A stretch of DNA of 64,000 nucleotides from assembly GCF_055900595.2 (NCBI RefSeq), contig NZ_CM148325.1. One strand, written 5' to 3'. This document shows, in pieces, positions 18,769-48,234 of the stretch. Position 1 is the stretch's first letter, and the number at the start of each line of letters is the position of its first letter. Below the pieces are notes generated by a model. That model worked only from the letters and a program-made list of their open reading frames with translations, was not told where the DNA came from and made no database searches. A program made the position numbers and the translations under genes.

Positions 18769-18803
18769 TAATGCATCTTTCCAGGGCATTTTGTGCATAA
18801 AAA

Positions 18804-18826
18804 CAGGGCGTAATGCCCTGTTTTGC
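18804..18826 (+). terminator. Rho-independent terminator after mipA
   Basis: Hairpin cagggcgtaatgccctg followed by TTTT. Confidence 0.5.
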
Positions 18827-18857
18827 ATTACGGTGGTGCAATACCTGGGAGGAAACA

Positions 18858-19712
18858 ATGCAACAAAAAATGATTCAATTTAGTGGCGATGTCTCACTGC
18901 CAGCCATAGGGCAGGGAACATGGTATATGGGCGAAGATGCCAGTCAGCGTAAAACAGAAGTTGCTGCACTACGCGCGGGCATTGAACTCGGTTTAACCCT
19001 CATTGATACCGCCGAAATGTATGCCGATGGTGGTGCCGAAAAGGTGGTTGGGGAAGCATTAACCGGTCTGCGTGAGAACGTCTTTCTCGTCTCTAAAGTC
19101 TATCCGTGGAATGCTGGCGGGCAAAAAGCGATAAATGCATGCGAAGCCAGTTTACGCCGTCTCAATACTGATTATCTCGATCTCTACCTATTACACTGGT
19201 CTGGCAGTTTCGCTCTCGAAGAGACTGTCGCAGCGATGGAAAAATTGATCGCCCAGGGAAAAATCCGCCGCTGGGGCGTTTCTAACCTTGATTATGCCGA
19301 TATGCAGGAACTCTGGCAGCTGCCGGGGGGAAATCAGTGTGCCACTAATCAGGTGCTTTACCATCTCGGTTCACGAGGGATTGAGTACGATCTACTTCCC
19401 TGGTGCCAGAAACAGCAGATGCCGGTGATGGCTTACAGTCCATTAGCCCAGGCCGGGCGGTTGCGCAATGGACTGTTAAAAAATGCGGTAGTCAACGAAA
19501 TTGCACATGCTCACAATATCAGTGCGGCACAAGTATTGTTGGCGTGGGTAATCAGCCATCAGGGTGTGATGGCGATTCCAAAAGCGGCAACTGTCGCACA
19601 TGTCCAACAAAATGCGGCTGTGCTTGAGGTTGAACTTTCGTCAGCGGAATTAGTTATGCTGGATAAAGCGTATCCGGCACCAAAAGGAAAAACTGCGCTG
19701 GATATGGTGTGA
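18858..19712 (+). CDS. yeaE: Aldo-keto reductase
   Basis: ORF track 18813-19712 trimmed to MQQKMIQFSG (284 aa as recalled). Confidence 0.88.
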   Translation: MQQKMIQFSGDVSLPAIGQGTWYMGEDASQRKTEVAALRAGIELGLTLIDTAEMYADGGAEKVVGEALTGLRENVFLVSKVYPWNAGGQKAINACEASLRRLNTDYLDLYLLHWSGSFALEETVAAMEKLIAQGKIRRWGVSNLDYADMQELWQLPGGNQCATNQVLYHLGSRGIEYDLLPWCQKQQMPVMAYSPLAQAGRLRNGLLKNAVVNEIAHAHNISAAQVLLAWVISHQGVMAIPKAATVAHVQQNAAVLEVELSSAELVMLDKAYPAPKGKTALDMV

Positions 19713-19762
19713 TGTTGATACGTGCCGGATGCATCGCACCCGGCACACAATATTAACGCAAA

Positions 19763-20647
19763 TTAACGTTTCGCAACGCGAATGGATTGCGCCAGATGTG
19801 CAGGTTTCTCTTTGGTGACTTTTTGCGTTTCTGAAGCGTATGCCGTTTCTACACAAACAAAGGTCTTGTAGCCATCATCCGGCATATCGCCCATGCTAAC
19901 TGAAAGCGCCGGTCCTGGGTTCCAGCCTACAACGTTCAGATGATGCTGGTGGCCTACGGCGATAATACGATTCAGCGCTTCGTCATTAATTACGCTGCAA
20001 TCTTGCGGATTCAGATACACGCGATCGGTACGGTCAGGGAAGGTCTGAATACCGTCGGTCAGTACATCTTCTTTCGCGTCATTTACTTTATCAATGAAGC
20101 GATCGCCTAGTCCACTGACGCTTACCTTAGCGATATCACCCACGTTAAAGTAGGTATGCAGAGCAGAGGTAGTTTCAAATTCGCCGTGTGCTTCAAGATC
20201 GATTTCACAGGTTTTACCCACGTGGAAATGCGCTAACAGCGTAAAGTCGTGCGGCCAGAATTTTTTCGTCTCTTCGCTTTGTGTCAATTCAAAAGTCAGC
20301 GCTACACCATCAGCATCTTCACGATGTGATTTCAGCGTCCACGGCAGGTTGCGGGCAAAACCGTGCGCAGGCAGACCTTGTTGTGCAGCCGGACCAAACC
20401 ACGGCCAGCAAACCGGTATGCCACCGCGAATGGCGACGCCATTTTTGAACGGTGTGTTGTTACTCAACCACAGAACTTCTTCTTCACCCGCAGGTTTCCA
20501 CGAGAGAAGGTGTGCGCCCTGTAATGCAAAAGAGGCTTTTACCTGGGGATGATCGACCACAATGAGGTCCAGTTCATCCAGTTTACGACGGGAGAGGACA
20601 GGGGAGATTTGTTCGATGACCGGAAGGGCAAAAATTTTCTTAATCAT
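19763..20647 (-). CDS. yeaD: Aldose/glucose-6-phosphate 1-epimerase family protein
   Basis: ORF track 19763-20668 trimmed to MIKKIFALPV (294 aa). Confidence 0.88.
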   Translation of the reverse strand: MIKKIFALPVIEQISPVLSRRKLDELDLIVVDHPQVKASFALQGAHLLSWKPAGEEEVLWLSNNTPFKNGVAIRGGIPVCWPWFGPAAQQGLPAHGFARNLPWTLKSHREDADGVALTFELTQSEETKKFWPHDFTLLAHFHVGKTCEIDLEAHGEFETTSALHTYFNVGDIAKVSVSGLGDRFIDKVNDAKEDVLTDGIQTFPDRTDRVYLNPQDCSVINDEALNRIIAVGHQHHLNVVGWNPGPALSVSMGDMPDDGYKTFVCVETAYASETQKVTKEKPAHLAQSIRVAKR

Positions 20648-20679
20648 GACGCAGTCCTTTAACTTCATTTTATCAGGTA

Positions 20680-20710
20680 AAAAAAAGAGCGACCGAAGTC
20701 GCTCTTTTTA
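20680..20710 (-). terminator. gapA terminator (hairpin flanked by A/T runs, potentially bidirectional)
   Basis: aaaaaagagcgaccgaagtcgctcttttt between gapA stop and yeaD start. Confidence 0.55.
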
Positions 20711-20730
20711 GATCACAGTGTCATCTCAAC

Positions 20731-21738
<1,008 letters not shown>

Positions 21739-22067
21739 CTATTTGTTAGTGAATAAAAGGTTGCCTGTAAAATTACAAAAACCTTACGCAGCGTCAAGCG
21801 GAATCGTGTCAATCATTGCGACAAATCAATCCTGTGCCTAAGCATTATGCGACTGACTCGCCTCACTCTTCCTTTGGGCTTGAGACCACATGGGGTCGGC
21901 GCCCCGAATTTTAAAGGGCAATTACGATAAAAATGTGATTTTCATCACGATTTAGGTGCAGCTATTTCGTCGAGATCAAGTTTAGGACAAAATTTTGCCA
22001 GTTGGTGTTAATGTTTTGTTAGAATCAGTCGCGTAATGTGAGCACGATTAAAGTGAGATGTGAGCAA

Positions 22068-22481
22068 ATGGCTAATAAACCTTCGGCAGAAGAACTGAAA
22101 AAAAATTTGTCCGAGATGCAGTTCTACGTGACGCAGAATCATGGGACAGAGCCGCCATTTACGGGTCGTTTACTGCATAACAAGCGTGACGGCGTATATC
22201 ACTGTTTGATCTGCGATGCCCCGCTGTTTCATTCCCAAACCAAGTATGATTCCGGCTGTGGCTGGCCCAGTTTCTACGAACCGGTGAGTGAAGAATCCAT
22301 TCGTTATATCAAAGACTTGTCACATGGAATGCAGCGCATAGAAATTCGTTGCGGTAACTGTGATGCCCATCTGGGGCATGTCTTCCCCGACGGGCCGCAG
22401 CCAACGGGTGAACGTTATTGTGTTAACTCAGCCTCTTTACGCTTTACCGATGGCGAAAACGGCGAAGAAATCAACGGTTGA
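22068..22481 (+). CDS. msrB: Peptide methionine sulfoxide reductase B
   Basis: ORF track 22038-22481 trimmed to [10 protein letters not shown] (137 aa); two CxxC pairs and catalytic RYCVNSASL. Confidence 0.92.
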
Positions 22482-22522
22482 AAAAACGATTCAGCAACTT
22501 ATTCCACAGGAGCGGAAAAATT

Positions 22523-22795
22523 ATGAATCTTGATGACATTATCAACAGCATGACGCCTGATGTATACCAGCGTTTGTCGACTGCCGTTGAGCTGGGGAAA
22601 TGGCCCGATGGCGTTGCGCTGACCGAGGAACAAAAAGAGAACTGCCTACAGCTGGTGATGCTGTGGCAAGCCCGCCATAATACCGAAGCACAGCATATGA
22701 CAATTGACACACATGGTCAGATGGTTATGAAGAGCAAACAACAGTTAAAAGAAGATTTTGGTATCTCAGCAAAGCCTATTGCCATGTTTAAGTGA
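22523..22795 (+). CDS. yeaC: DUF1315-family protein YeaC
   Basis: ORF track 22478-22795 trimmed to MNLDDIINSM (90 aa); starts just after msrB. Confidence 0.82.
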   Translation: MNLDDIINSMTPDVYQRLSTAVELGKWPDGVALTEEQKENCLQLVMLWQARHNTEAQHMTIDTHGQMVMKSKQQLKEDFGISAKPIAMFK

Positions 22796-22955
22796 ATGAG
22801 TTGTCTAGTATTTAAGCCTGTTATTAAGGGAGGGCAAATAGACTTGTTCGGACGTCGTGTTTTAGCTGCAAGTAGGTTAAATGCAACACTGACAAGTATT
22901 ATCTGGCCTACAATGTCATTGAGGAAATGTAGGCCAGAGATGAATCCAACTAATA

Positions 22956-24624: not shown

Positions 24625-24755
24625 GATATTGATATGAATGATATCGAAAGAGCAAAAGTATATACGTGAGGGGCAGCGAGCGCACCTGGATACTCTGTGG
24701 ATATGAGAAAAGTCCGGCAGAACGGAGGGATTAGTGTCCCGCCGGAGAAAAGTGG

Positions 24756-25478
24756 TTAATCCTGCAACGCATAGGTTACGGTGGTGACTACGCGTACCGT
24801 TTTATTAATCGCCGTAGGATCATCTTCATCACTGCCACTGGCGAAGATCTGGAACACGCCTTGTGAGGCATCGCTAATTGACCCCACCTGGCTACCTGAG
24901 TCCGTTGCAAATTGTAATGCTGCGTTGCGTGCATCTTTGGTGGCGGCGGCAATCATCTCAGCGCGCAGTGCGCCAATACCATTAAAGCGATAGGCGACTT
25001 TGCTCTCAGCGATAGCGCCCTCCGTAGCGACTTGCAGTTCGTTTAATTTCGCGACGACTTTTTCGACAGCAGCAACATTATGGGTTTTTATCGTCACTGA
25101 CCCGTCTGCGTTATAGCGTGGCATTGTGGGATCATCTTTCAGATAAAAGGAATCTGTTCGCTTGCTTGTCCATTGGCCCAGGGTTATCTCTTTCTCGTTA
25201 ATCCCCTGAGCATTGAGTTCGGCAACAATTTTTTTCTGCGCGTCTTCCAGTTTCGGGAACAGTTCGCCGGGAATATTACCCTTAAAGTTAATCGCAATTG
25301 TTAATTCTGCCGTATCTGCGCGAACTTCTTTTTCAGAAAGCCCACGCACATTTACATAACGGTTATTGGTTTTCAAATGTTTAACACCATCGCCAACAAA
25401 ATAACCACAGGCGCTAATCCCCAGTCCGAGGACGATAGCGGCAATTAAAGAGGGGGCCTTATTCACTGATGACTCCAT
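24756..25478 (-). CDS. SIMPL/DUF541-domain periplasmic protein (YggE-like)
   Basis: 240-aa product MESSVNKAPSLIAAIVLGLGISACGYF...; the ORF-track 389-aa version is an artefactual upstream extension running into the IS200 flank; no counterpart between ansA and sppA in recalled K-12. Confidence 0.75.
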   Translation of the reverse strand: MESSVNKAPSLIAAIVLGLGISACGYFVGDGVKHLKTNNRYVNVRGLSEKEVRADTAELTIAINFKGNIPGELFPKLEDAQKKIVAELNAQGINEKEITLGQWTSKRTDSFYLKDDPTMPRYNADGSVTIKTHNVAAVEKVVAKLNELQVATEGAIAESKVAYRFNGIGALRAEMIAAATKDARNAALQFATDSGSQVGSISDASQGVFQIFASGSDEDDPTAINKTVRVVTTVTYALQD

Positions 25479-25539
25479 ATCAGATGCTAAATGAGCAAGG
25501 GAATGTAGTGGAGAGAGGGAGTGAAAGACAGTCCGATTC

Positions 25540-26250
25540 AGGAGTGTGGCCGACAGCATATCGGCCACATTTTTGTGCACAGAAAACCCCCAGCTAGGCT
25601 GGGGGTTCCGGAAAGCTTTCAGCTTTGAGCCAGTTATTAAAACCCCTTTTGATTTGTTAAAACACCTTGCGGTCTGGCAACTGCAAGTGTCAAACAAGAA
25701 ATCAAAAGGGGGTCCCAATGGGGGACGAAAAGAGCTTAGCGCACACCCGCTGGAACTGTAAATATCACATAGTTTTTGCGCCGAAATACCGAAGACTGGC
25801 GTTTTACGGAGAGAAGCGTAGGGCGATAGGCAGTATTTTGAGAAAGCTGTGTGAGTGGAAAAGCGTACGGATTCTGGAAGCAGAGTGCTGCGCAGATCAT
25901 ATCCATATGCTTGTGGAAATCCCACCCAAAATGAGCGTATCCGGCTTTATGGGATATCTGAAAGGGAAAAGCAGTCTGATGCTTTACGAGCAGTTTGGGG
26001 ATTTGAAATTCAAATACAGAAACAGGGAGTTCTGGTGCCGAGGGTACTATGTCGATACGGTGGGTAAGAACACGGCGAAGATACAGGACTACATAAAGCA
26101 CCAGCTTGAAGAGGATAAAATGGGGGAGCAGTTATCGATTCCATATCCGGGCAGCCCGTTTACGGGCCGTAAGTAACGAAGTTGAATGCAAATGTCAGAT
26201 CGTATGCGCCTGTTAGGGCGCGGCTGGTAACAGAGCCTTACAGGCGCATT
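25540..26250 (+). mobile_element. IS200 (IS200/IS605 family), about 0.7 kb, boundaries approximate
   Basis: Contains tnpA below; left end carries the characteristic perfect hairpin gtggccgacagcatatcggccac and a second stem cccccagctaggctggggg upstream of tnpA. Confidence 0.8.
25718..26176 (+). CDS. tnpA: IS200 Y1 (HuH) transposase TnpA
   Basis: MGDEKSLAHTRWNCKYHIVFAPKYRR...HIHMLVEIPPK...YIKHQLEEDK; HuH motif; near-identical to recalled IS200 TnpA. Confidence 0.92.
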   Translation: MGDEKSLAHTRWNCKYHIVFAPKYRRLAFYGEKRRAIGSILRKLCEWKSVRILEAECCADHIHMLVEIPPKMSVSGFMGYLKGKSSLMLYEQFGDLKFKYRNREFWCRGYYVDTVGKNTAKIQDYIKHQLEEDKMGEQLSIPYPGSPFTGRK

Positions 26251-26285
26251 TGAAAAACCTCCGGCTATGCCGGAGGATATTTATT
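26250..26285 (-). terminator. sppA Rho-independent terminator
   Basis: Minus-strand hairpin cctccggcatagccggagg followed by TTTTT just downstream of the sppA stop. Confidence 0.55.
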
Positions 26286-26292
26286 GCAGGAT

Positions 26293-30025: not shown

Positions 30026-31981
30026 ATGCGGTTGTTTATTGCCGAAAAACCGAGTCTGGCGCGCGCCATTGCTGATGTCCTGCCCAAACCGCACCGGAAA
30101 GGCGATGGCTTTATCGAGTGCGGTAATGGCCAGGTGGTGACCTGGTGTATCGGTCACCTGCTTGAGCAGGCGCAGCCAGACGCCTACGACAGTCGCTATG
30201 CGCGCTGGAACCTGGCCGATCTCCCCATTGTCCCGGAAAAGTGGCAATTACAGCCACGACCCTCCGTGACCAAACAACTTAACGTCATCAAACGCTTTCT
30301 GCATGAAGCCAGCGAAATCGTTCACGCCGGTGACCCGGACCGTGAAGGGCAATTGCTGGTAGATGAAGTGCTGGACTACCTGCAACTGGCACCAGAAAAG
30401 CGCCAGCAGGTACAGCGTTGTTTGATAAACGACCTGAACCCGCAGGCGGTTGAGCGGGCGATCGATCGTCTTCGCTCCAATAGCGAGTTTGTACCACTGT
30501 GCGTTTCTGCGCTGGCGCGAGCACGAGCCGACTGGTTATACGGCATCAATATGACCCGCGCGTACACCATTCTCGGTCGTAATGCGGGTTATCAGGGCGT
30601 GCTTTCCGTGGGCCGCGTGCAGACGCCCGTGCTCGGGCTGGTGGTGCGCCGCGATGAAGAAATTGAAAACTTCGTGGCGAAAGACTTCTTTGAAGTCAAA
30701 GCGCATATCGTGACACCTGCCGATGAGCGGTTTACCGCTATCTGGCAACCGAGCGAAGCGTGTGAACCGTACCAGGATGAAGAAGGGCGCTTGTTACATC
30801 GTCCGCTGGCGGAGCATGTGGTCAACCGCATCAGCGGCCAACCGGCTATTGTCACCAGCTATAACGATAAACGGGAATCAGAATCCGCACCGCTGCCGTT
30901 TTCGCTTTCGGCGTTGCAGATTGAAGCGGCTAAACGCTTTGGTCTGAGTGCGCAGAACGTGCTTGATATCTGCCAGAAGTTGTACGAAACGCACAAGCTA
31001 ATCACTTATCCGCGTTCCGATTGTCGCTATCTGCCAGAAGAGCATTTTGCCGGACGCCACGCGGTGATGAATGCTATCGGCGTCCATGCGCCGGATCTGT
31101 TGCCGCAACCAGTGGTAGATCCAGATATACGCAACCGCTGTTGGGATGACAAAAAGGTCGATGCGCACCACGCCATCATCCCGACCGCGAGGAGTTCTGC
31201 CATCAACCTGACGGAAAACGAGGCGAAGGTCTATAACCTGATTGCTCGTCAGTATTTGATGCAGTTCTGTCCGGACGCGGTGTTCCGCAAGTGTGTTATC
31301 GAACTGGAAATAGCCAAAGGCAAATTTGTCGCTAAAGCCCGTTTTCTTGCTGAAACAGGCTGGCGCACACTGTTAGGCAGCAAAGAGCGCGATGAAGAAA
31401 ACGACGGCACGCCACTGCCTGTGGTGGCGAAAGGCGATGAGTTGCTGTGTGAAAAAGGTGAAGTGGTAGAGCGGCAAACCCAGCCGCCGCGCCATTTTAC
31501 CGATGCAACACTGCTTTCGGCGATGACCGGGATCGCGCGCTTTGTGCAGGACAAAGATCTGAAAAAGATCCTTCGTGCCACCGATGGTCTGGGGACAGAA
31601 GCAACCCGTGCCGGGATTATTGAACTGTTGTTCAAGCGTGGCTTTCTGACCAAAAAAGGGCGCTATATCCACTCCACCGACGCCGGAAAAGCGTTATTCC
31701 ATTCACTGCCAGAAATGGCTACGCGACCGGACATGACCGCGCACTGGGAATCGGTGCTGACGCAAATCAGCGAAAAGCAGTGCCGCTATCAGGACTTTAT
31801 GCAACCGTTGGTGGGGACGCTGTATCAGTTGATTGATCAGGCCAAACGTACGCCGGTGCGGCAGTTTCGCGGCATAGTGGCTCCAGATGGCGGAGAAGGA
31901 AATAAAAAGACTTCACCCCGTAAGCGAGCAGCGAAAAAAAGCCCGCCAGCAGCAGAGGCGGGCAGTGGAGTGATAATGTAA
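30026..31981 (+). CDS. topB: DNA topoisomerase III
   Basis: ORF track 29969-31981 trimmed to [19 protein letters not shown] (651 aa); Toprim and topoisomerase IA domains; starts 4 nt after selD stop. Confidence 0.95.
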
Positions 31982-32004
31982 TGCTCTGATGCAGTCAGTT
32001 TTCG

Positions 32005-32040
32005 TAGGCCAGATAAGGCGTTCACGCCGCATCTGGCATA
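32005..32040. repeat. REP (repetitive extragenic palindromic) element
   Basis: Reverse complement GCCAGATGCGGCGTGAACGCCTTATCTGGCCTA matches the recalled REP consensus with compensatory changes in the stem. Confidence 0.6.
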
Positions 32041-32064
32041 AACGCCTGAAACGGCGCTAATGAC

Positions 32065-33408
32065 TTAAATCACACCCTGCGCCAGCATCGCATCGGCAAC
32101 CTTCACAAAACCGGCAATGTTCGCGCCCTGCACGTAGTTGGTTTGCTCACCTTCACCACCATGCTCAACACAGGCATGGTGGATATCCAGCATGATGTGA
32201 TGCAAACGTGCGTCAACTTTCTCGGCTTTCCAGCCCAGGCGCGCAGCGTTTTGCGCCATTTCCAGGCCGGATGTAGCTACGCCACCAGCATTAGCCGCTT
32301 TACCCGGTGCAAACAGTACGCCTGCCTGCTGGAACAGTTCAGTCGCTTCGATGGTGGTCGGCATATTTGCCCCTTCGGCGACGGCTTTAACGCCATTGGC
32401 GATAAGCTGATGCGCGGCGTCTACATCCAGTTCGTTCTGGGTGGCGCAAGGCAGGGCGATATCAACCGGTACAGACCACGGCTGTTGGCCTTCGAGATAG
32501 ACCAGGCCAAATTCTTTGGCGTAATCTGCCACTCGACCATCGCGGCTGGCTTTGATTTCGATAAGACGTGCCAGTTTCTCTTTAGTGAATCCGCTTTCAT
32601 CAACGACAGTGCCACTGGAGTCTGACGCAGTAATCACACGGGCACCAAATTCCATCGCTTTTTCGATAGCGTACTGGGCGACGTTGCCGGAGCCAGAAAC
32701 GGAAACGCGCATCCCTTCAAAACCCATACCGTGGCGTTTTAGCATTGCTTCTGTGAAATAAACCAGACCGTAGCCGGTTGCTTCCGGGCGAATAAGACTG
32801 CCGCCAAAAGAAAGCCCCTTACCGGTGAAGACGCAGGCGGTATTGTTGGAGAGCTTTTTCATCATCCCCGCCATAAAGCCGACTTCACGACCACCAACGC
32901 CGATATCACCTGCCGGAACGTCGGTATCCGCGCCCAGGTGGCGATACAGTTCAGTCATCAGGGCCTGGCAAAAACGCATCACTTCACCTTCGCTTTTTCC
33001 TTTCGGATCGAAATCGCTGCCACCTTTACCACCGCCCATCGGCAGGGTAGTCAGGGCATTTTTGAAGGTTTGCTCGAAGCCGAGAAATTTGAGAATGGAG
33101 AGGTTAACTGACGGATGGAAACGCATACCGCCTTTGTACGGGCCGATGGCGGAGCTGAACTGAACGCGCCATGCACGGTTGACCTGTACCTGGTTGCGAT
33201 CGTCAACCCATACCACGCGAAACTGGATCACGCGCTCCGGTTCAACCAGACGCTCCAGTAATGACATCTGACGATATTTTGGATTTTGTTCAAGAAAAGG
33301 CCAGAGTGTGGTCATTACTTCACGAACGGCTTGCGCGAACTCGGTTTGATTCGGGTCGCGCTTTTGGACATGGTTGAGGAATGACTCCAGAGAATATGTC
33401 TGATCCAT
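32065..33408 (-). CDS. gdhA: NADP-specific glutamate dehydrogenase
   Basis: 447-aa ORF MDQTYSLESFLNHVQKRDPNQTEFAQAV with Glu/Leu/Phe/Val dehydrogenase signature. Confidence 0.97.
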   Translation of the reverse strand: MDQTYSLESFLNHVQKRDPNQTEFAQAVREVMTTLWPFLEQNPKYRQMSLLERLVEPERVIQFRVVWVDDRNQVQVNRAWRVQFSSAIGPYKGGMRFHPSVNLSILKFLGFEQTFKNALTTLPMGGGKGGSDFDPKGKSEGEVMRFCQALMTELYRHLGADTDVPAGDIGVGGREVGFMAGMMKKLSNNTACVFTGKGLSFGGSLIRPEATGYGLVYFTEAMLKRHGMGFEGMRVSVSGSGNVAQYAIEKAMEFGARVITASDSSGTVVDESGFTKEKLARLIEIKASRDGRVADYAKEFGLVYLEGQQPWSVPVDIALPCATQNELDVDAAHQLIANGVKAVAEGANMPTTIEATELFQQAGVLFAPGKAANAGGVATSGLEMAQNAARLGWKAEKVDARLHHIMLDIHHACVEHGGEGEQTNYVQGANIAGFVKVADAMLAQGVI

Positions 33409-35004: not shown

Positions 35005-36312
35005 TTATTTGCTGCTGTCCGGGCCGCGCTCACCGGTTGCTACGGGATTTTTCGGATCGCTGCTCCATTCGTACCAGCCGCCGTCGTAAACGGAGACGTT
35101 ATTCCAGCCCATTGCTCGTGCGTACATAAAGGTTTCGGACGCGCGCCAGCCGGTGCCGCAGTAGAATGAAACTTGCTGATCTGGTTTGATATTCCATGCT
35201 TTCCACATAGCGGCAATATCATCGGCGCTACGCATGGTGCCATCCGGGTTATGGAAATCCTCCATATGCGTCGAGTCGCTACCAGCGTGTCCCCAACGGG
35301 CTCCGGCTATTTCACCTTTTGGCTTAATATAGCTGTAACCACTGGTCGTACCGATAAATTCTGGCCACGAACGAATGCTCACCAGCGATGCATCCTGGCG
35401 ATGCAGCAGCCCACGGGCCTGTTCCATATCAAGCATCAACTGCGGTTGCGCCGGGATCTTCACGCCGAAATCCGGTTCAGCTTTCACTTTCGGTGGCGTT
35501 CCGCGCTCAACAGGCAGTCCCGCGTCGGACCAGGTTTGCCAGCCGCCGTCCAGCAGGCGCACATCTTTCACCCCTGCATAGAGCATAATCTGTGCTACAC
35601 GCGCTGCTGCGTATACATCACGACCATATAGAATCACCGTGGTGTCATGACGAATGCCATGCTTTGCCAGCATCGCTTTCAGTTGTTCATCAGAGACTTT
35701 ATTCCACAGCGGTTCGCTTTCCACTTCATTGGTATCGATGTAATCCGCGCCGGGAATATGGCTGATAAGGTAAAGCTTAGGAGCGCCCCAGGCCGCTTCA
35801 ATGACTTTCCAGTCACCGGCAGGTTTCGCCGTAACCTCTTTACCCTGTTGCAGGTCATGCAGCCATTGCGGATAAACCAGCTGCTCAAAGTGCGGCAGTT
35901 TTTGCAGATGGGAAGGTTCGCTTAGCGCGTCACTCAGGATGGAGATATGCGTAAAACCTGCTTTTTGCAGTCGCGTTTTGACGGCGTCGACATCTTTGTC
36001 ATTACCGTACAGCGCCACCGGAGCGTCGGTTTTCAGGTTATGTTGCTTGATCCACGCGTTGAGCTGTTCGGTGCTCATTTTGTCGAGCCAGCTAGCAGAG
36101 AGGTTTAAGGCGGCAGGTTCATGACCAGAAGGGCCATTTAAGGTTTGTGGCCAGCCGTTATAAAACGCGCTGGGGCGAGTATCTATCGCTTTGCCATTTT
36201 GTTGTTGAAGCTGGTCAAGTGTAAGAGGCTTCGCCAGTTCAGCGGCCCACGAAGAAGCGCAAGCCAGCCCTAAAGCCATTGCCAGCGCGGTCATTTGAGA
36301 AACACGTTTCAT
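35005..36312 (-). CDS. ynjE: Periplasmic thiosulfate sulfurtransferase (triple rhodanese)
   Basis: ORF track 35005-36327 trimmed to MKRVSQMTALAMALGLA (435 aa); catalytic CGTGWR loop. Confidence 0.88.
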   Translation of the reverse strand: MKRVSQMTALAMALGLACASSWAAELAKPLTLDQLQQQNGKAIDTRPSAFYNGWPQTLNGPSGHEPAALNLSASWLDKMSTEQLNAWIKQHNLKTDAPVALYGNDKDVDAVKTRLQKAGFTHISILSDALSEPSHLQKLPHFEQLVYPQWLHDLQQGKEVTAKPAGDWKVIEAAWGAPKLYLISHIPGADYIDTNEVESEPLWNKVSDEQLKAMLAKHGIRHDTTVILYGRDVYAAARVAQIMLYAGVKDVRLLDGGWQTWSDAGLPVERGTPPKVKAEPDFGVKIPAQPQLMLDMEQARGLLHRQDASLVSIRSWPEFIGTTSGYSYIKPKGEIAGARWGHAGSDSTHMEDFHNPDGTMRSADDIAAMWKAWNIKPDQQVSFYCGTGWRASETFMYARAMGWNNVSVYDGGWYEWSSDPKNPVATGERGPDSSK

Positions 36313-36378
36313 CGAAAATCCCGACATTGTAGTTTTGAGTGCGCCATTCTGAACTGACGCATTGGGAAAAACTTTGCG

Positions 36379-37032
36379 TTATCGCAGTTTGTTGTAATTT
36401 TCTGACCACTGCGCCATATCCAGAACAGAACTATCAGCAGGAACATCCTGGAGATCGTGCGTTACCTGAACGACGGGGATCGCCAGTTCGCGAACTTCGC
36501 TGAACACCCACTGGCGAAAATTATCGCGCAGAGCCACATCAAGACGGCTGAACGGCTCATCCAGTATTAACGCTTTAGGCTGGGCGAGAAGGGCACGTAG
36601 CAAGGCTACCCGCGCTCGCTGGCCGCCCGATAATGTCGCCGGATCCTGATGAAAAGTTCCGCCAAGCCCTGTCCGTTCAAGCGCATCATTTACTGCATTG
36701 TGCCTTGCAGCCCCTTTCAGTGTCGCCGGTAGCGCCAGCAATAAATTTTGCCCGACGCTGAACTGGTCAAATAACAGCGCATCCTGGAAAAGAATGCCAA
36801 TCTGACGCTGTGCGGTGGGTAGCATGTCAATCCGTTGCTCATTGAGCCATAGCTCACCTGTACAAGAAAACTGTCCTGCCAGCGCACCAATCATCCATGA
36901 AAACAGAGAAGATTTACCACAGCCTGAGGGACCCATTAACGTGACAATGTCACCTTTATTGACCGTAAAGTTAACGTTTGTCAGCAAAGGCCTTTCAGGC
37001 AAACGTAGCGAAACATCTTTCACGCAGAGCAT
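36379..37032 (-). CDS. ynjD: ABC transporter ATP-binding protein
   Basis: ORF track 36379-37119 trimmed to MLCVKDVSLRL (217 aa); Walker A GPSGCGKSS and LSGGQ signature. Confidence 0.85.
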   Translation of the reverse strand: MLCVKDVSLRLPERPLLTNVNFTVNKGDIVTLMGPSGCGKSSLFSWMIGALAGQFSCTGELWLNEQRIDMLPTAQRQIGILFQDALLFDQFSVGQNLLLALPATLKGAARHNAVNDALERTGLGGTFHQDPATLSGGQRARVALLRALLAQPKALILDEPFSRLDVALRDNFRQWVFSEVRELAIPVVQVTHDLQDVPADSSVLDMAQWSENYNKLR

Positions 37033-38567
37033 TAGCGGAGTCCTTGTCTGACATAACCTACCCATTTTGCAAGCAGGGCGGTCAGGGCAAAAATAATAAG
37101 CGGCAACAGTAGTTGCCATAAAGCCTGGGCGGCGAGAATGCCGTTGCTGCCGCCGCTGCTTAATGCCACCGCTTCAGTGGTGAGTGTCGGAAAACGCCCC
37201 GCGCCCAGCCACAGCGTCGGCATATACTGCGCAATACTGACTGAAAATCCCACCGCGAAGGTAATCAGCGCAGGGCGCAACATGAGTGGGCATTTCACGT
37301 AAAAGAAGATTTTGGCCCGCGACCAGCCCAGTGTTTGCGCAATCAAAATTAACCGTGAATCAATGCGCTGCCAGGCGGGTTGCAGGATAAACAGCATCCA
37401 CGGCATTACCCACAGCAGATGCCCCCAGACCACCGCTGTCCAGCTCCCATCTATGTTCAGCCATAGCGCCAGCATGTACTGGCCCGCCACCAGCGGCAGA
37501 GCGGGTAACAATATGGGCAACCATAGCCAGAATTGCCTCCGTAGTGATCCCCATTCCAGCCAGGCCAGTAACAGGATTAAAGCGAGAAACGTCGCGGTAA
37601 GTCCCATCGTCAGGCTGTTGATGAGCGCTTCACTATTGATCGTCGACTGATCCGCGAGGATCGCCAGCAGAGCCACACAGAGCACACCGGTTAAGGGTAA
37701 AAAAATCGCCAGTGTATTACCGGGTAATAAAGGCGTGGCGTGCTTACGAACGCCATCTTCCTGGGGGATCGTGCGTCGCCAGGCGCGCCATAACAGATAA
37801 CCCAGCAAAACGTAGGCGGCGAGTAACAGCATCAGCAGCAGGCTGGCAAGCGCGCCTTTTGTCTGTTGGTCAATGCCACCCTGGGTTAGCCACTGCCAGC
37901 TAATTACCGCCAGCGTCGGTGGATTACCCGGCCCGAGAATAATTGCCACATCCACGACCGACAACGACCATGCCACAATAGCCAGCATCGCCATTGCCAG
38001 TGCAGGCGCGACGGAGGGCAACAACAACCAGTTCAGACATTGCCAGCGGCTGTAGCCCAGCGAATCCAGTACAATAACCTGCTGCAACAGCCGTTTCTCG
38101 CTCAATACTGCCGCTAAGATCCACAGCAGAAATGCGCTTTCTTTCACCGCCAGGGTAAGGCCCAGCCCAATACCCAATTTATCCATCGGCGGAGTGAGAA
38201 AAGGAAAAACCTGATAAACCAGGCCACCTTCAGCAAACAGCAACAGGGCGCTGGTGGCAAAAGCCACATGGGGAATGGCGAGCAGCCACGGCAGACGGGC
38301 GCACATACGCTGCCATTTCGGCCCAGGCCACAGCGCCATAATTACCAGCAGGGCAATCGTCAATGCGCCGAGCGCCGCGATGGTTGTTGACACCAGTGTT
38401 GCCAGTAAGGCCTGCGGTAGCTGCGGATCGGCAAATAACGCCTGCCAGTGTGCCAACGACAAAGCAGGCGATATCAGCGTGAGAGCTGCCGGGATCAGCG
38501 GTGAATAAATCACCACCACCATCGCCCACAGCAACAAGATTAATGCGTACCGTAACGGCGTAGCCAT
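37032..38567 (-). CDS. ynjC: ABC transporter permease (fused double permease)
   Basis: 511-aa polytopic ORF; stop overlaps ynjD start by 1 nt. Confidence 0.85.
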   Translation of the reverse strand: MATPLRYALILLLWAMVVVIYSPLIPAALTLISPALSLAHWQALFADPQLPQALLATLVSTTIAALGALTIALLVIMALWPGPKWQRMCARLPWLLAIPHVAFATSALLLFAEGGLVYQVFPFLTPPMDKLGIGLGLTLAVKESAFLLWILAAVLSEKRLLQQVIVLDSLGYSRWQCLNWLLLPSVAPALAMAMLAIVAWSLSVVDVAIILGPGNPPTLAVISWQWLTQGGIDQQTKGALASLLLMLLLAAYVLLGYLLWRAWRRTIPQEDGVRKHATPLLPGNTLAIFLPLTGVLCVALLAILADQSTINSEALINSLTMGLTATFLALILLLAWLEWGSLRRQFWLWLPILLPALPLVAGQYMLALWLNIDGSWTAVVWGHLLWVMPWMLFILQPAWQRIDSRLILIAQTLGWSRAKIFFYVKCPLMLRPALITFAVGFSVSIAQYMPTLWLGAGRFPTLTTEAVALSSGGSNGILAAQALWQLLLPLIIFALTALLAKWVGYVRQGLR

Positions 38568-39709
38568 TCTTGTTCCAGCGCATTTACCCAGCCAGCATGC
38601 GGTTCCGCCAGTACCGGCGGCAGATCCTGCGGCATTCTTGATTGTAAAGTTTCACGCTGCCCGGCAGGCAGTTTTTGTGGATCGAGAACCGATGGATCAC
38701 CCCAGACAGCAGGATCTGCCTTACGTAGCTGTGCATCAGGTGAGAGCAGGAAATTGGCAACCACCTTCGCCGCAGCACTGGCATTCGCGTTGGCAGGAAC
38801 GGTGACGAAATGCACGTTGCCAATCATCCCCTCGCGAAAGCCAAAACTGTAACTGCTTGCTGGCAAATCGCCACTGGCGATTTTTTGCTGGGCATGTGCA
38901 GGATTAAAGGTCAGCGACAGGCGCAATGTGCCAGTTTTCAGCAGAGCATCCATCCGCGCGGGCGAAGGTGGGAAATCCTTTCCTTCGCGCCATAGATACG
39001 GATGCAGCGCATCAAGATATTGCCACAAGGGCGCAGTGATACGGGCGAAAGTCGCATCGTTCGGCGCTTTCTTTAATGCTGCGGGATCTGGCGTCAGCAT
39101 AATCAGTAACTGTTCAAGAAATGCGGTGCCAGTAAAGTCTGGCGGGCGCGGATAGGTAACCGTGCCAGGATTGGCTTTAGCGAATTCCAGTAAGGCTTGC
39201 GGTGTTTGTGGTGGCAGTGGCGTAACATCGCGGCGGGCGATAAACGTCAGTTGTGCGCCGCCCCAGGGCGATTCAGCCCCTTCTGTAGGCACTGAAAAAT
39301 CTTCCCGCACCGGCAGCTGTGTGTCGATATAGCGCCAGTTGGGCAGAGTCTCCGCCCAGCCTGTTTGTAATAAATTAGCCTCTTTTAAGGTGCGGAAGTT
39401 TTCGCCGTTCACCCAGAGCAGATCCACCGAACCGCCTGTTTTGCGCCCGGCAGCAGCTTCGGTCTGAATGCGCTTCACCGCGTCTGCGGCATCCGCCAGG
39501 CGGACAATCTTCAGGTTTATATCATAATGGGTTTTCATCTCGCCGCTAACCCAGTCGAGATAGCGGTTAATTGCGGTATCGCCGCCCCAGGCGTTAAACC
39601 AGACGGTTTGCCCTTTGGCCTCATTTTTAACTTCCTGCCAGTCACTGGCATGTGTTGCCAGAGAAAACAGCGATAACAATCCCAGCAACCACCCACAATG
39701 GCGCATCAT
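38540..39709 (-). CDS. ynjB: ABC transporter periplasmic substrate-binding protein
   Basis: 389-aa ORF with signal peptide; overlaps ynjC start. Confidence 0.85.
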   Translation of the reverse strand: MMRHCGWLLGLLSLFSLATHASDWQEVKNEAKGQTVWFNAWGGDTAINRYLDWVSGEMKTHYDINLKIVRLADAADAVKRIQTEAAAGRKTGGSVDLLWVNGENFRTLKEANLLQTGWAETLPNWRYIDTQLPVREDFSVPTEGAESPWGGAQLTFIARRDVTPLPPQTPQALLEFAKANPGTVTYPRPPDFTGTAFLEQLLIMLTPDPAALKKAPNDATFARITAPLWQYLDALHPYLWREGKDFPPSPARMDALLKTGTLRLSLTFNPAHAQQKIASGDLPASSYSFGFREGMIGNVHFVTVPANANASAAAKVVANFLLSPDAQLRKADPAVWGDPSVLDPQKLPAGQRETLQSRMPQDLPPVLAEPHAGWVNALEQEWLRRYGTH

Positions 39710-39936
39710 CTCTCCTTAGGAATAAAACTAGATGTATAATCTATTGTTTTTTCATTTGTTGTTTTGTTTGTGTTTTTTAGGGGCCACCAATAAGGCCCCT
39801 TGCGCAGTTCGAATTCTTCTGGTGCTATTTTTCCTCTTTTTTCTGTCTTCCTCCATTATTCTGTTTGACTCGATGTTCTGTATTACGAAATCGAATTAGA
39901 GGGCAGATACTTAGAAATTACCAGTTCAGCTTTCCA

Positions 39937-40722
39937 TTAGTTCCGGATGTTTAAACGTGATATGCGCGGAGCCCTTCTTAAAGTATCTGATACTGAACAT
40001 CTCATCTTCATAGCACTCTTTACCCTGAACAGACTGGATGTGCCATCCTGATGAATGGTTATGTTTTTCCCGTTGCCGGGGATGGGGGTGCCGCTGAACA
40101 GATGTAGCATTCTTTCCAGGTCGGCGAGTCGGTCAGTCTGTTGTCCGGTGATAAGATGAAATCCCCACCGGTCCCATCTCACCAGATTGTTGATAATGAT
40201 TTTACTTCCAAATTTACAGGGAGAGTTGGTTTTATAATTCCAGCTCAGTTCCCTGAAGACGTTAATCACTCCCCGCTTAAACACCTCATCCTTGTTCTGG
40301 TGCACTTGTTCAAATGTGCTCAGAATGTTCGCTTCGCTGATTTCCTGAAAATTATCGTACTCCAGTGAGCGGTACCATGTATCACGGGCCTGTGCATCCA
40401 TTAAGGAAAGCATCCCTGAACGTTGCATCAGGTCACGCCAGATTTCACGGTCAAGGTTGCGGGTAATGGCTTTCATTGCGGTTTCCTGTTTCTCCTTCAG
40501 CCAGCAGCCACAGCGAAAATCCTGTTTCATGGCCCAGTCCGGGGCGGTTTTACCTCCAATACTTTCCGTCAGAATTGAGATTTTAGCCAGTTGCCGGATA
40601 AGTGTGTCGATTGGCAACAGTGTACTCTTTCGTACAGCCAGAATGTGGCAGACTGAGGTGGAACAGATAACGTCCGTATGCCCGCTGACCACCTCCGGGC
40701 GGGAGAGTGTGGTATCTGACAT
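39937..40722 (-). CDS. Hypothetical protein, first gene of the island next to the core junction
   Basis: 261-aa ORF, separated from the upstream YeeW-like gene by a hairpin terminator; no family recognised from sequence alone. Confidence 0.45.
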   Translation of the reverse strand: MSDTTLSRPEVVSGHTDVICSTSVCHILAVRKSTLLPIDTLIRQLAKISILTESIGGKTAPDWAMKQDFRCGCWLKEKQETAMKAITRNLDREIWRDLMQRSGMLSLMDAQARDTWYRSLEYDNFQEISEANILSTFEQVHQNKDEVFKRGVINVFRELSWNYKTNSPCKFGSKIIINNLVRWDRWGFHLITGQQTDRLADLERMLHLFSGTPIPGNGKNITIHQDGTSSLFRVKSAMKMRCSVSDTLRRAPRISRLNIRN

Positions 40723-40756
40723 AATCGTTTTTCCTTTTTGCAGATAAATGAAAACG

Positions 40757-40785
40757 CCAGCTCTGTTCAGGCTGGCGTCAGGAGA
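40757..40785 (-). terminator. Rho-independent terminator after the YeeW-like gene
   Basis: Minus-strand hairpin acgccagcctgaacagagctggcgt followed by a T-rich tract. Confidence 0.45.
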
Positions 40786-40806
40786 ATGAAGTCTGGTGAG
40801 TGAGAT

Positions 40807-41232
40807 TCACCGGTTCTGGTGCAGAAGTTGCAGTTGGTGCAGGGTACGGATATCCTCCCTGGCCTGTTCGATACAGGGCAACAATGCTGCCGAATCCGTT
40901 TTATCCTCATCGTTGTCGAAAATAATTCCGGACCCGCAGTCGATATTGTCCTGCAGCCACGCAATGAGGATATCCAGCGCTGTTTCAGTGGTTAATGGCA
41001 TCACGCTCTGTATCACTGTATTGTCTTCCGGCAACTGATGAGAGCTGGCAGAAGTCGCCGGTGTTTCGGTAGCGTCACGTTCATCCACCACGCGGAGTGA
41101 ATAACCGTATTCAGCGACCTTGTTAATCAGTTCAGTGAGCTCAACACCATCAATGTCAACGACAATTCGCCCTATATTCAGTGCCTGTACGTTAACGCTG
41201 TCTGCTTCCAATGTCAGGGCCAGTTTCATCAT
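40807..41232 (-). CDS. YeeW-like protein following the CbtA-type toxin
   Basis: 141-aa acidic ORF whose start overlaps the toxin stop (ATGA); position matches yeeW in CP4-type islands. Confidence 0.6.
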
Positions 41233-41603
41233 TTCGCCTCCGGATACTTACCCAGGGTAATGTTATTTACCGTTCTGTAATTGTCGCGGGTCATCAGGCC
41301 GGTCGCCCTGCGAGCCCGGAGGATATCGATGCTGTTTATTAACTGAGAGCGGGTACAGGCGCTGAATCCCGGCTGGTCGGTACGCACCAGCGCGTATTTT
41401 TCCACGAGAAAGTTCACCGCATCACACAGTGAAATGCCTGCCTCAATATGCAGCTCAATCACGCGTTCATCCGCGAACGGTGTGTCATTCAGCGTAAGGC
41501 TGTAATGCTGGTCCAGTAACCGGGTGAGCAGTGTCTGCCAGATGGTGACGGGAGACGGGCAACACGATGCCTCCCGTACATGCGTGTCGGGTAATGTTTT
41601 CAT
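41229..41603 (-). CDS. CbtA/YkfI/YpjF-family toxin (type IV toxin-antitoxin)
   Basis: 124-aa [40 protein letters not shown] sequence typical of the CbtA family. Confidence 0.8.
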
Positions 41604-41692
41604 AATGAAGATTTTCCTGATATGCAGAGATAAAAAATGGGACAGTGGCGTGGTGAAAACACCAGGCCGGAGCAGAAGATTATTCTGATGAT

Positions 41693-42061
41693 TTACTTTT
41701 TCGTTTCGGGCGTCGGATAAACAGCCAGATAAACGTAACCACAGGAGCCGAGGGTGTCGGCTTCACAGGTCAGCCCCTTCGCATACAGTGTCACGGTATG
41801 CTGATGGCGGGGATTCAGTTCACCGCTGGTGAGCATGAGCTCCAGTTGTTTCATCGGCAGCGGAAAGGCCTGGTCCGGATGGTACGCATCCGCATCTCTG
41901 AACCGGCCTCTGATACCGGCACGGTCGGCAAGGTAATGCAACCGGTTACCCTCCTGCACCAGACGTGCCCCGAAACAGGGCGTCACGGTGCAGGGCAGTC
42001 CCCACCAGAGGCGGTCGTGATTGTCGTCGTGATGCGTTGTCCCGGGGAGTGTGTCTGACAC
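41693..42061 (-). CDS. CbeA/YafW/YfjZ-family antitoxin
   Basis: GTG start at 42061 (GAGGA upstream) gives 122 aa [38 protein letters not shown]...; ORF-track version carries an upstream extension. Confidence 0.8.
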
Positions 42062-42110
42062 GATAAAATCCTCACAGAAAATCGTTGAATGATAGTTTAA
42101 CTTTGACAGG

Positions 42111-42755
42111 TCAGCCGGTGCGCAGACCGGCTTCGGTGAAGGTGTATTCGTTGATGAGAAGGGCCTCATCCACAGGGGCATCTGAGGTCAGCCTGTTGTG
42201 CTCGTTTTCCAGTTGACGGTACAGCCATAAGGCCAGGTCGCGCAGGGCTTCGCTGACAGCGGCTTCCGCATCTGTTGTCATAGTCTGACCAGTCGGACTG
42301 TTCCGGGTAACAGTGATATCCATGCTGTACGGATGGCAGTAGCGTCCCCGGCGGTGGATTTCAGCCTGCAGTTGCCAGAAGTTACGCTTCTGCACCGCCT
42401 GCAGGGCATCCGCGATACGATGGAGTTCATGCTCCTGTGGGGCATACTTCCGGATTATCCGGGCTGTCGCCGGCTGCCAGTGCCAGCGTCCTTCAAAACA
42501 GGCTCCGTCCCCCTGGCTGCAGCATCCGCTGAACCAGATGCACGGCTCTTCCATAAACCTGCCGTTGCTGAGCCGGAAAACGCGCTGGCGGAGGTCAATT
42601 CCGAAAATGTCACAGACCGCCCTGAAGTCCTCATACACGTTTTCATACCAGTTGCTGTCAGCATGATGCTGACGGTACCCGTCGCGGGCTTTTCCCCGTA
42701 CCGGGCAGGAAAGTTCATCCAGCGTATACACTGTGATGGTGATAATGCTGCTCAT
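42111..42755 (-). CDS. Hypothetical cysteine-rich 214-aa protein inserted between the DUF987 and antitoxin genes
   Basis: ORF with RBS AAAGGGGA; contains CIWFSGCCSQGDGACFEGRWHW cluster; no family recognised. Confidence 0.5.
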   Translation of the reverse strand: MSSIITITVYTLDELSCPVRGKARDGYRQHHADSNWYENVYEDFRAVCDIFGIDLRQRVFRLSNGRFMEEPCIWFSGCCSQGDGACFEGRWHWQPATARIIRKYAPQEHELHRIADALQAVQKRNFWQLQAEIHRRGRYCHPYSMDITVTRNSPTGQTMTTDAEAAVSEALRDLALWLYRQLENEHNRLTSDAPVDEALLINEYTFTEAGLRTG

Positions 42756-42773
42756 CAGAATCCCCTTTCTGAT

Positions 42774-42995
42774 TCAGTTCAGGGTGACGCTCATCAGCCG
42801 GACATACGGGCCAAAACTGTCCTTACGGCGTTCAGCAAACACGGCCAGCACACCGGGAATATCCTGTACTTCACGACCGGTATACGTCTCAGCACTGCCG
42901 TGCCAGCGGTACTTACCGGTGCAGAACGGAAATAGACGGGATGCAGGATGCTGTTGGTGAATACGCATGGCTTCACCACGGGTGATAATTTTCAT
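42774..42995 (-). CDS. DUF987-family protein (YeeT/YkfH-like)
   Basis: 73-aa ORF MKIITRGEAMRIHQQHPASRLFPF; canonical position between radC-like and antitoxin genes. Confidence 0.7.
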   Translation of the reverse strand: MKIITRGEAMRIHQQHPASRLFPFCTGKYRWHGSAETYTGREVQDIPGVLAVFAERRKDSFGPYVRLMSVTLN

Positions 42996-43408
42996 AATGG
43001 GATACCTCTGAAGACAGAAGATAAAAGTGAAAACAGGTGTGATGTGGTTGTGACGGGTTAAAGCAGACCATGTTCGGCAAAGGAGAAAACCTGGCTGCCA
43101 CCGACTATCAGATGGTCCGGCACCCGGATATCCACCAGGCCCAGTGCCTGTACCAGACGTTCCGTGATAAGGCGGTCTGCCTTGCTGGGTGTGACTTCAC
43201 CGGACGGGTGATTGTGCGCCAGCACCACGGCAGCGGCATTGTGGTACAGGGCGCGTTTAATCACTTCCCGGGGATGGACTTCCGTGCGGTTGATGGTGCC
43301 GGTGAAGAGGGTTTCACCGGCAATCAGCTGATTCTGGTTGTTCAGATACAGCACCCGGAATTCTTCACGCTCCAGTCCCGCCATGTTCAGAATCAGCCAT
43401 TGTAGTGG

Positions 43409-44659
<1,251 letters not shown>

Positions 44660-44810
44660 ATTCCCGTGCCGCATGCGTGGAGGTGAAGGCCACGCCGGGT
44701 TCATGAAGATGGCGGTCCAGGGCTTTCAGGGCCCGCTGAATGAGGCTGCGCTCTCTGGTTGTCATTTCTCCGGGCAGAAAGGAAATCTGTTGCATTGTTC
44801 CGGCCCCCTT

Positions 44811-45290
44811 TCAGTCAATGATGCGCATAATGGCGCTGCATTCCGGATGCTGCAGGGCGTAATCCCGCAGACGGTAATAATGAACCGTCATGGCATAACA
44901 CTCCGTACGGCAGGCGTGATGACTGTACGTCATCAGACAGGCAGCAATGCCGGCGGCTTCCGGGCTCATTTCAGCGCGGTTACCGTTCATGGCATTGAAC
45001 AGTACCCATGTTTCGTCATCATCATCATCCGGTTCGGGGGCCATAAATGCCCCGCCGTTGTTCAGGGTGTACAGATTCCAGATACCACCGCAGTAGTCTT
45101 CGCACAGACGGTCCATCCAGCCGAAGACACGGGGCTCCAGGGTCACCCACTGTGGAATGAGGCCAAAATGCTGCGGCCAGAAGCTGATGCGCTGTTCATC
45201 AGGGACGAGGCTGGCAACCAACTGAGGCGGATTATTCTCTGGTGTTGTAGCTGAATAAATTGTGGGGGTATTCTGAGAAACGGTTTTCAT
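44811..45290 (-). CDS. Antirestriction protein (KlcA/ArdB-like)
   Basis: 159-aa ORF with acidic stretch EPDDDDDE and the conserved C-terminus recalled for YfjX/YafX-type antirestriction proteins. Confidence 0.75.
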   Translation of the reverse strand: MKTVSQNTPTIYSATTPENNPPQLVASLVPDEQRISFWPQHFGLIPQWVTLEPRVFGWMDRLCEDYCGGIWNLYTLNNGGAFMAPEPDDDDDETWVLFNAMNGNRAEMSPEAAGIAACLMTYSHHACRTECYAMTVHYYRLRDYALQHPECSAIMRIID

Positions 45291-45371
45291 GAGATAACGC
45301 CTTAAATAACAAATAAATGTGTGTTTTTCAGGAACGAAAGCTGAATGATTCCCTCACTCAGGGAAACGGCA

Positions 45372-48129: not shown

Positions 48130-48234
48130 ACCGGTATCCTGTTGATTTCACTGAACCGGATCACACTAATCCGGTTTATCATTCAGGTAATATGGGCGTG
48201 AAAAAATCTGGAGTGACAAAGTTCGGGAGGAGTG

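Follow-up and report, generated by a model that had tools for sequence, protein, structure and literature searches.

A ynjI-less topB-gdhA junction with a REP element and a half-REP remnant in Escherichia coli, most likely of ancestral type

Introduction

In the annotation of Escherichia coli K-12 MG1655, the genes gdhA (b1761), ynjI (b1762) and topB (b1763) follow one another. In YnjI, two predicted transmembrane helices (residues ~38-64 and ~68-90) precede a DUF1266 domain, the K-12 protein matching PF06889 with 90.6 bits. The gene has been reported to be activated by BglJ-RcsB and to be regulated, to some extent, by H-NS/StpA (PMC3950696). The ynjI-less state is an ordinary case of presence/absence variation between strains.

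Two REP elements separated by a linker of about 40 nt lie between gdhA and ynjI in K-12, the stem of the proximal one being 9 nt from the gdhA stop codon. The gdhA mRNA becomes less stable when the REP that follows the gene is deleted (Merino et al. 1987, according to the accounts given in PMC12306157 and PMC8049555). REPs down-regulate translation only when located <16 nt from a stop codon (Liang, Rudd & Deutscher 2015, from the account in PMC12306157). REP singlets are considered to be decaying remnants of REP doublets (PMC8049555). A doublet of the BIME/REPIN kind consists of two complete, inverted REPs with a short linker between them.

Another K-12 system to which the contents of this locus can be compared is the hscC locus (MG1655 675570-683393), made up of ybeQ, ybeR, djlB, ybeT, ybeU, djlC and hscC. 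These genes encode proteins with Sel1 repeats (ybeQ, ybeT), DUF1266 (ybeR, ybeU) or a J domain (djlB, djlC) and an Hsp70 (hscC); ybeR overlaps djlB and ybeU overlaps djlC.

Here, we analysed the topB-gdhA junction of a 64-kb stretch of DNA (64,000 nucleotides of contig NZ_CM148325.1, assembly GCF_055900595.2), hereafter called the window. A first-pass annotation had noted that topB and gdhA are separated there by 83 bp holding only a REP element and that ynjI is absent; it had stated, correctly, that ynjI lies between the two genes in K-12.

Organization of the topB-gdhA junction

The two genes are convergent and their stop codons, that of topB being the TAA at 31979-31981, are 83 bp apart (Table 1). 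RefSeq gives the same annotation of both genes for the identical sequence of NZ_CP098223.1. They are flanked by selD and ydjA upstream of topB and by ynjH, nudG and ynjF beyond gdhA.

Table 1. Features of the topB-gdhA junction in the window
Feature	Coordinates	Strand	Basis or remark
topB (DNA topoisomerase III), 651 aa	30026..31981	+	NCBIfam TIGR01056, 1020 bits
topB variable tail, last ~45 codons	~31826..31981	+	allele-specific
Predicted intrinsic gdhA terminator in the topB coding tail	31934..31963	-	pattern match and fold
topB-gdhA intergenic spacer, 83 bp	31982..32064	.	no ORF, no ynjI
Complete REP, GTAG head, GTAGGCCAGATAAGGCGTTCACGCCGCATCTGGCATA	32004..32040	+	stem 32008-32037; inverted arms, fold, dispersed copies
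15-nt string CATAAACGCCTGAAA	32037..32051	+	identical to the sequence across the K-12 ynjI stop codon
Half-REP remnant, left arm of a second, inverted REP, ACGCCTGAAACGGCGCT, 17 nt	32042..32058	+	alignment to E. albertii
gdhA (NADP-specific glutamate dehydrogenase), 447 aa	32065..33408	-	NCBIfam NF006929, 778 bits

The limits of the gap were confirmed to the nucleotide, and the list of open reading frames contains none of at least 40 aa inside it. The sole frame that overlaps the gap, one of 62 aa on the minus strand (31837-32025), runs antisense to the topB tail and is unsupported. A tblastn search with K-12 YnjI gave no match anywhere in the 64-kb window, which bears out the absence of ynjI, and no ORF encoding DUF1266 was found between topB and gdhA. 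The alignment of the window with MG1655 breaks at both stop codons (31981 and 32063), MG1655 having 1,282 bp where the window has 81 bp. No sigma-70-like promoter was found in the region 31700-32400, which includes the gap.

REP sequences of the spacer

The spacer is composed of 22 nt of unique sequence, the complete REP, the 17-nt sequence ACGCCTGAAACGGCGCT and then AATGAC. In the RAYT/REP literature, REP palindromes begin on their 5' side with a conserved GTAG tetranucleotide, the head. The head of the element of the window (GTAGGCCAGATAAGGCG, 32004-32020) is an exact match to the search pattern, and its arms (32005-32021 and 32024-32040) are 82% complementary. The predicted hairpin has a free energy of -19.4 kcal/mol (z = -4.57), a value equalled by one of 200 shuffled sequences. 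Furthermore, the 46-nt segment 32002-32047 matches unrelated chromosomal sites with 95.7% identity in all of the best-listed 22 further genomes, which include CFT073 and Nissle 1917. These hairpin statistics and dispersed copies, together with a sub-threshold match to the naRNA4 family (see below), show that the palindrome did not arise by chance and is a member of the dispersed REP family. Hence, the REP-like palindrome noticed at first reading is a genuine REP. Like other REPs of E. coli, it is an imperfect palindrome of about 35 nt with a GTAG head, it is wholly extragenic between the stop codons of two convergent genes, and near-identical copies of it occur at other sites of E. coli genomes. 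The 64-kb window contains no second full copy and carries one 13-nt remnant at 22899-22911. No U-run follows the hairpin on either strand, the next nucleotides being AUAAACG on the plus strand and ACGAAAAC on the minus strand.

The positional orthologue of this REP in L008, which belongs to another E. coli lineage, differs at 4 of the 37 positions. Two of these differences form one compensatory change in the stem: the window has a lineage-specific A-T pair where L008 has G-C.

The claim that the spacer holds only one REP has to be qualified: a single REP is complete, but a half-REP remnant lies beside it. This remnant aligns to the E. albertii sequence ATGCCTGATGCAACGCT, which runs on via TGCGCGTCTTATCAGGCCTAC as a complete REP (E. 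albertii L009), and it is truncated in the same way in L008 and L010. The content of the gap thus reads, from this alignment, as a decayed REP doublet (BIME/REPIN): an intact REP plus half of its inverted partner. Two complete inverted REPs are not found in the gap, the partner being complete only in E. albertii L009. The window keeps a stump of the inverted partner, as a decaying doublet would, and this fits the published view that singlets derive from doublets (PMC8049555).

A different type of REP-like sequence was observed in the yeaH-yeaG spacer (15617-15644, plus strand), in which a GTAG-headed G+C-rich hairpin (GTAGGCCCGGTAGCATGCGTACCGGGCC) has a predicted free energy of -19.1 kcal/mol.

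Contents of the slot in E. coli

The comparison of the gdhA-topB interval across strains that the first-pass annotation had proposed revealed a true presence/absence polymorphism of ynjI. Among 5,426 complete E. coli genomes, 3,506 (about 65%) carry ynjI between the two genes. A sensitive blastn search returned the same 3,506 genomes, which speaks against divergent ynjI genes missed by megablast. topB and gdhA are contiguous in 1,516 genomes: 1,499 have a 76-bp spacer of B2 type (e.g. EC958) and 17 have the 83-bp spacer of the window (98-100% identical). Moreover, 368 genomes carry in this slot a cassette of about 3.9 kb encoding an Hsp70-family protein and a J-domain/Sel1 protein, and about 36 genomes, a number obtained by subtraction, are unclassified. 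In E. coli, the slot thus comes in three or more cargo states instead of two. In lacking ynjI, the window resembles B2 strains such as EC958; however, the B2 spacer has another left flank and no half-REP, and the spacer of the window is far rarer.

All alleles of the slot meet precisely at the stop codon of gdhA. Towards topB, they part about 130 nt before the stop codon of that gene, so that the C-terminal tail of TopB co-varies with the cargo: TopB has 651 aa in both the window and EC958, 653 aa in K-12 and 648 aa in the Hsp70-type allele. The last 156 nt of the topB gene of the window are 76-86% identical to the other alleles, versus 91-96% for the first 1,800 nt. This tail is 83-86% identical to those of EC958, L008 and E1V33 and 76% identical to that of K-12.

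Sporadic insertion sequences were observed in the occupied slot in a set of genomes comprising H167 (NZ_AP045064.1), H82, H102, H150, H179 and L004. IS621 (IS110 family), a REP-targeting element, is located within the topB-ynjI-gdhA stretch in one of them. IS1 is found inside or adjoining ynjI in several, and one IS1-mediated truncation reduces ynjI to its first ~117 nt.

Source lineage and other variable regions of the window

The window is 100% identical to Z0117EC0005 over 1.3 kb around the gap and 99.97% identical over positions 14001-39722. It diverges from this genome to the right of 39722, where it carries an island that Z0117EC0005 lacks; it is thus from a related strain and not from Z0117EC0005 itself. 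The core block from yeaH to msrB (15000-22500) is at least 99% identical to only 17 of the 5,426 genomes; its identity to the others that were sampled is 97.1-97.6%. As to topB, its first 1,800 nt share about 95% identity with the K-12 allele and with the B2 allele, these two being 96.8% identical to each other. These identities place the window in a rare, deep-branching lineage of E. coli that comprises 17 genomes and may be a cryptic clade. From the matching counts and the shared top hits, we infer that the same 17 genomes carry the spacer and the core block. Since the spacer is found in as many genomes (17) as the lineage comprises, it was probably inherited vertically rather than produced by a recent local event.

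Other regions of the window also differ from K-12. In the pncA-yeaC spacer (22796-22955), the K-12 cluster of eight genes ydjE-ydjL (b1769-b1776, ~9.1 kb) is absent and pncA adjoins yeaC. Two REP-head remnants facing away from each other (TATCTGGCCTAC ... GTAGGCCAGAG) are located at 22794-22886 in this spacer; as they lie where ydjE-ydjL is missing, REP debris marks a second indel junction. Between sppA and ansA, a 1.58-kb insertion relative to K-12 (24704-26286) carries a gene for a SIMPL/DUF541 protein (24756-25466, minus strand) and an IS200-like transposase gene (25718-26176, plus strand, PF01797).

Homology to both K-12 and Z0117EC0005 ends within the final codons of ynjA, just upstream of ynjB (position 39722). 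Positions 39723-64000 are occupied by an island of more than 24 kb encoding DUF4942, YeeP-like GTPase and YagK/YfjJ proteins, several transposases (IS3-type rve, DDE_Tnp_1 and Mutator family) and, at 58691-60385, a YadA-like trimeric autotransporter adhesin. No tRNA gene was found in the 64-kb window. The region 36000-56000 is covered at 80% or more by only 24 genomes.

Origin of the empty junction

We searched for the junction outside E. coli with TopB, using one genome per species. At least 80 loci were obtained, among which E. fergusonii, E. marmotae and further Escherichia do not figure. topB and gdhA are adjacent, without ynjI, in E. albertii (179-bp spacer with three REPs), in Escherichia sp. 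E1V33 (95 bp), in L008, a second representative labelled E. coli (81 bp), in Salmonella enterica subsp. diarizonae (29-bp spacer without a REP), in many Citrobacter (15-99 bp, zero to two REPs) and in Enterobacter, Kosakonia and others. Among the outgroup loci listed, ynjI occupies the slot only in Escherichia sp. MOD1-EC7003 (91% amino acid identity). Furthermore, the spacer of the window is collinear over its full length with those of L008 and E1V33 and with the first part of that of E. albertii. The G+C content is 41% for ynjI, 55% for topB and 53% for gdhA.

Taken together, the ynjI-less outgroups, the collinearity of the spacers, the AT-richness of the H-NS/StpA-linked ynjI and the topB tail of empty-allele type suggest that the empty junction is most likely of ancestral type and that ynjI is an insertion. 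The first-pass description of ynjI as absent was right, but this absence should not be read as a loss, given the outgroups and the collinear spacers. As a whole, the best explanation, which we consider probable, is a native ancestral-type junction in a rare deep-branching lineage that never acquired ynjI or had no ancestor with a K-12-like ynjI, including the role proposed for the REP below. The insertion may predate the diversification of E. coli, since ynjI alleles are only 58-80% identical at the protein level.

We also considered an exact replacement of the REP hairpin by ynjI. This idea agrees with the right boundary, but it was rejected because the similarity between K-12 and the empty alleles in the left flank is too weak (local alignment scores of 12-16) to support it.

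In E. albertii NBRC 107761 (L009), the topB tail contains an in-frame stop codon between the residues APSSGE and KKKASPRKR (~6150-6234). TopB lacks about 27 residues in this species, in agreement with a C-terminal tail that is dispensable and free to vary.

Alternatively, the lineage could have possessed a K-12-like ynjI and deleted it secondarily, for instance by REP-REP recombination leaving the REP and the 15-nt string CATAAACGCCTGAAA. This string is identical (15/15, local alignment score 30) to the K-12 ynjI stop region, a match for which we roughly estimate a chance expectation of ~4e-5. In addition, ynjI alleles are ancient in the slot, and independent IS1-mediated truncations show that the gene is dispensable and sporadically lost. 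However, from the 22 nt that precede the REP to the final 6 nt, the entire spacer is collinear with those of the ynjI-less L008, E1V33 and E. albertii, which a deletion would not recreate, and the topB tail of the window is of empty-allele type, not of K-12 type. The 15-mer itself sits at the junction between the REP tail and the half-REP, which is present, although diverged, in the outgroup spacers. It is found in K-12-type ynjI alleles, is diverged in MOD1-type alleles and is missing from the ynjI variants whose proteins are 68% and 80% identical. In view of the collinear spacers and of these two divergent alleles, the interpretation of the 15-mer as a deletion scar was set aside. Since it occurs in diverged form in the outgroup spacers and not in these two variants, its simplest reading would be a piece of the old spacer retained by K-12. 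We therefore regard a secondary loss as possible but unlikely.

It is highly improbable that the spacer, instead of a passive REP, encodes a functional nucleoid-associated small RNA of the naRNA4 type (derived from REP325). The Rfam model RF02564 does match positions 32007-32052 with 36.2 bits (E 2.8e-4) on the plus strand and 21.4 bits on the minus strand, but these scores are far below the gathering score of 59.5. naRNA4 derives from a REP element, so that a partial score would be expected from any REP. Moreover, the surroundings lack a promoter-like site (see above) and the region corresponds to the overlap of two convergent 3' UTRs. Lastly, an assembly artefact, in which ynjI would have been collapsed in or dropped from the assembly of the window, is almost inconceivable, since the sequence of the junction, enclosed by two stop codons, is unique, 17 independent complete genomes have the same spacer with 98-100% identity and 1,499 further genomes have a different ynjI-less spacer.

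Predicted transcript ends and putative functions of the REP

Under the preferred reading, i.e. a native ancestral-type junction, both convergent transcripts would read into the REP, since the gap contains neither a promoter-like site nor a hairpin followed by a U-run. As RNA, the REP hairpin would then block 3'-to-5' exonucleases and stabilise the mRNA located upstream of it, in line with the published effect of the K-12 gdhA REP. The REP of the window resembles the K-12 elements studied by Merino et al. (1987): it is associated with the same gene, on the same side, and shares its orientation and its GTAGGCC head with the gdhA-proximal REP of K-12. It differs from them in that one REP and a half-REP, instead of two REPs, are located between gdhA and topB, instead of between gdhA and ynjI. 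By analogy, the REP of the window probably stabilises the 3' ends of the convergent mRNAs. The distance between its stem and the stop codon is 26 nt for topB and 27 nt for gdhA, i.e. beyond the <16 nt within which REPs are reported to act on translation (Liang et al. 2015), whereas a REP lies 9 nt from the gdhA stop codon in both K-12 and EC958 (B2). From the published REP rules and these differences in REP number and distance, differences between lineages in gdhA mRNA stability and translation can be predicted.

Transcription of gdhA would stop about 130 nt past its own stop codon, at a hairpin followed by U7 located in the topB tail, on the opposite strand. This predicted terminator overlaps the coding sequence of topB, within its final ~45 nt. 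It consists of a 7-bp G+C stem, GCCCGCC (31963-31957) pairing with GGCGGGC (31947-31941), a 9-nt loop and U7 (31940-31934), with a predicted free energy of -16.0 kcal/mol (z -2.5). Equivalent hairpins of -14.6 to -17.5 were found in EC958, L008 and E1V33, so that four of the five empty alleles tested have a predicted gdhA terminator within the topB tail. The hairpin is not better than shuffled sequences in E. albertii (-9.8, z 0.16), where three REPs intervene, in K-12 (-7.2) or in the Hsp70-type allele (-7.0). Terminator-like patterns are about as frequent in shuffled sequences (0.9 +/- 1.2 per 700 nt), and the hairpin is conserved without compensatory change. From its conservation, we read the hairpin as a predicted gdhA terminator embedded in the topB tail of short empty alleles.

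ynjI and the alternative cargo genes

ynjI is an accessory, AT-rich gene whose product is a small membrane protein with two predicted helices and a DUF1266 domain. The family of YnjI-like proteins is small: a word-indexed search of 5.8 billion proteins gave 8 clusters and a search of 1.84 billion representatives gave 83 matches. Protein variants with 80, 68, 60 and 58% identity exist. The 68% variant is encoded in the same slot in E. coli, where topB and gdhA are 98.1% and 98.7% identical to those of K-12 at the DNA level. The 80% variant is encoded in the same slot in a metagenomic Escherichia-like (non-coli) genome. ynjI alleles (L089-L092 compared with L001) are far more divergent than their own flanks, and this divergence suggests diversifying selection or repeated import of ynjI.

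The third allele of the slot, found in L005 (5305-8945, ST1193), L006 and L007, is a two-gene cassette with 44% G+C; its carriers include a derivative of Nissle 1917. Its first protein (566 aa) is a full-length HscC paralogue of the Hsp70 family, 43% identical to K-12 HscC. The second one (647 aa) combines a J domain similar to those of DjlB/DjlC and Sel1 repeats similar to those of YbeQ/YbeT. A related pair of Hsp70 and J/Sel1 genes is located about 4 kb downstream of topB in Klebsiella spallanzanii (L035).

The cargoes of other strains thus match component types of the HscC-DjlB/DjlC module, YnjI sharing DUF1266 with YbeR and YbeU; the window itself carries no part of this module. Since all the alternative cargoes are of hscC-module component types, a link between DUF1266 proteins and HscC-type chaperones is suggested; it provides a weak lead to a functional association. 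BLASTP detected no similarity between YnjI and YbeR or YbeU, and no Hsp70 or J-domain gene was found among the neighbours of four distant ynjI-like genes, one of which has a faint Sel1 gene nearby. The main review on bacterial Hsp70 proteins contains no mention of these genes.

Two other ideas on these cargoes were rejected. ynjI is not a remnant of the gene encoding the J-domain protein of the cassette, the two proteins having no BLASTP similarity (best E value 1.5). Nor does the slot appear to be a hotspot for defence islands, no cargo protein having a meaningful PADLOC match: YnjI has no match in PADLOC-DB, and the Hsp70 and J/Sel1 proteins have only marginal partial matches (17.5 and 19.5 bits).

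In a broader interpretation, the junction would be a long-lived, multi-state cargo slot of Escherichia whose cargoes are non-random, YnjI and other DUF1266 proteins being partners or clients of HscC-type chaperones, with the gdhA terminator lying in the topB tail of most short empty alleles. As a whole, this scheme seems quite improbable.

Conclusions

If the junction of the window is ancestral, K-12 should not be taken as the ancestral reference for this locus: K-12 would bear the insertion, and the strain that looks odd would keep the original junction. For annotation, no gene is to be expected in the topB-gdhA gap of this lineage. The slot, flanked by convergent housekeeping genes, can be viewed as a site where insertions are naturally tolerated. 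Furthermore, the 3' UTR of gdhA varies between lineages in the number of REPs and in their distance from the stop codon (27 nt here and 9 nt in K-12 and B2). If the predicted terminator is real, the sequence of the topB tail would be tied to the cargo state. Lastly, the alternation of ynjI with an Hsp70/J-domain cassette is a weak lead on the function of DUF1266 proteins; if the link with HscC-type chaperones is true, the lineage of the window would be a natural null for that function.
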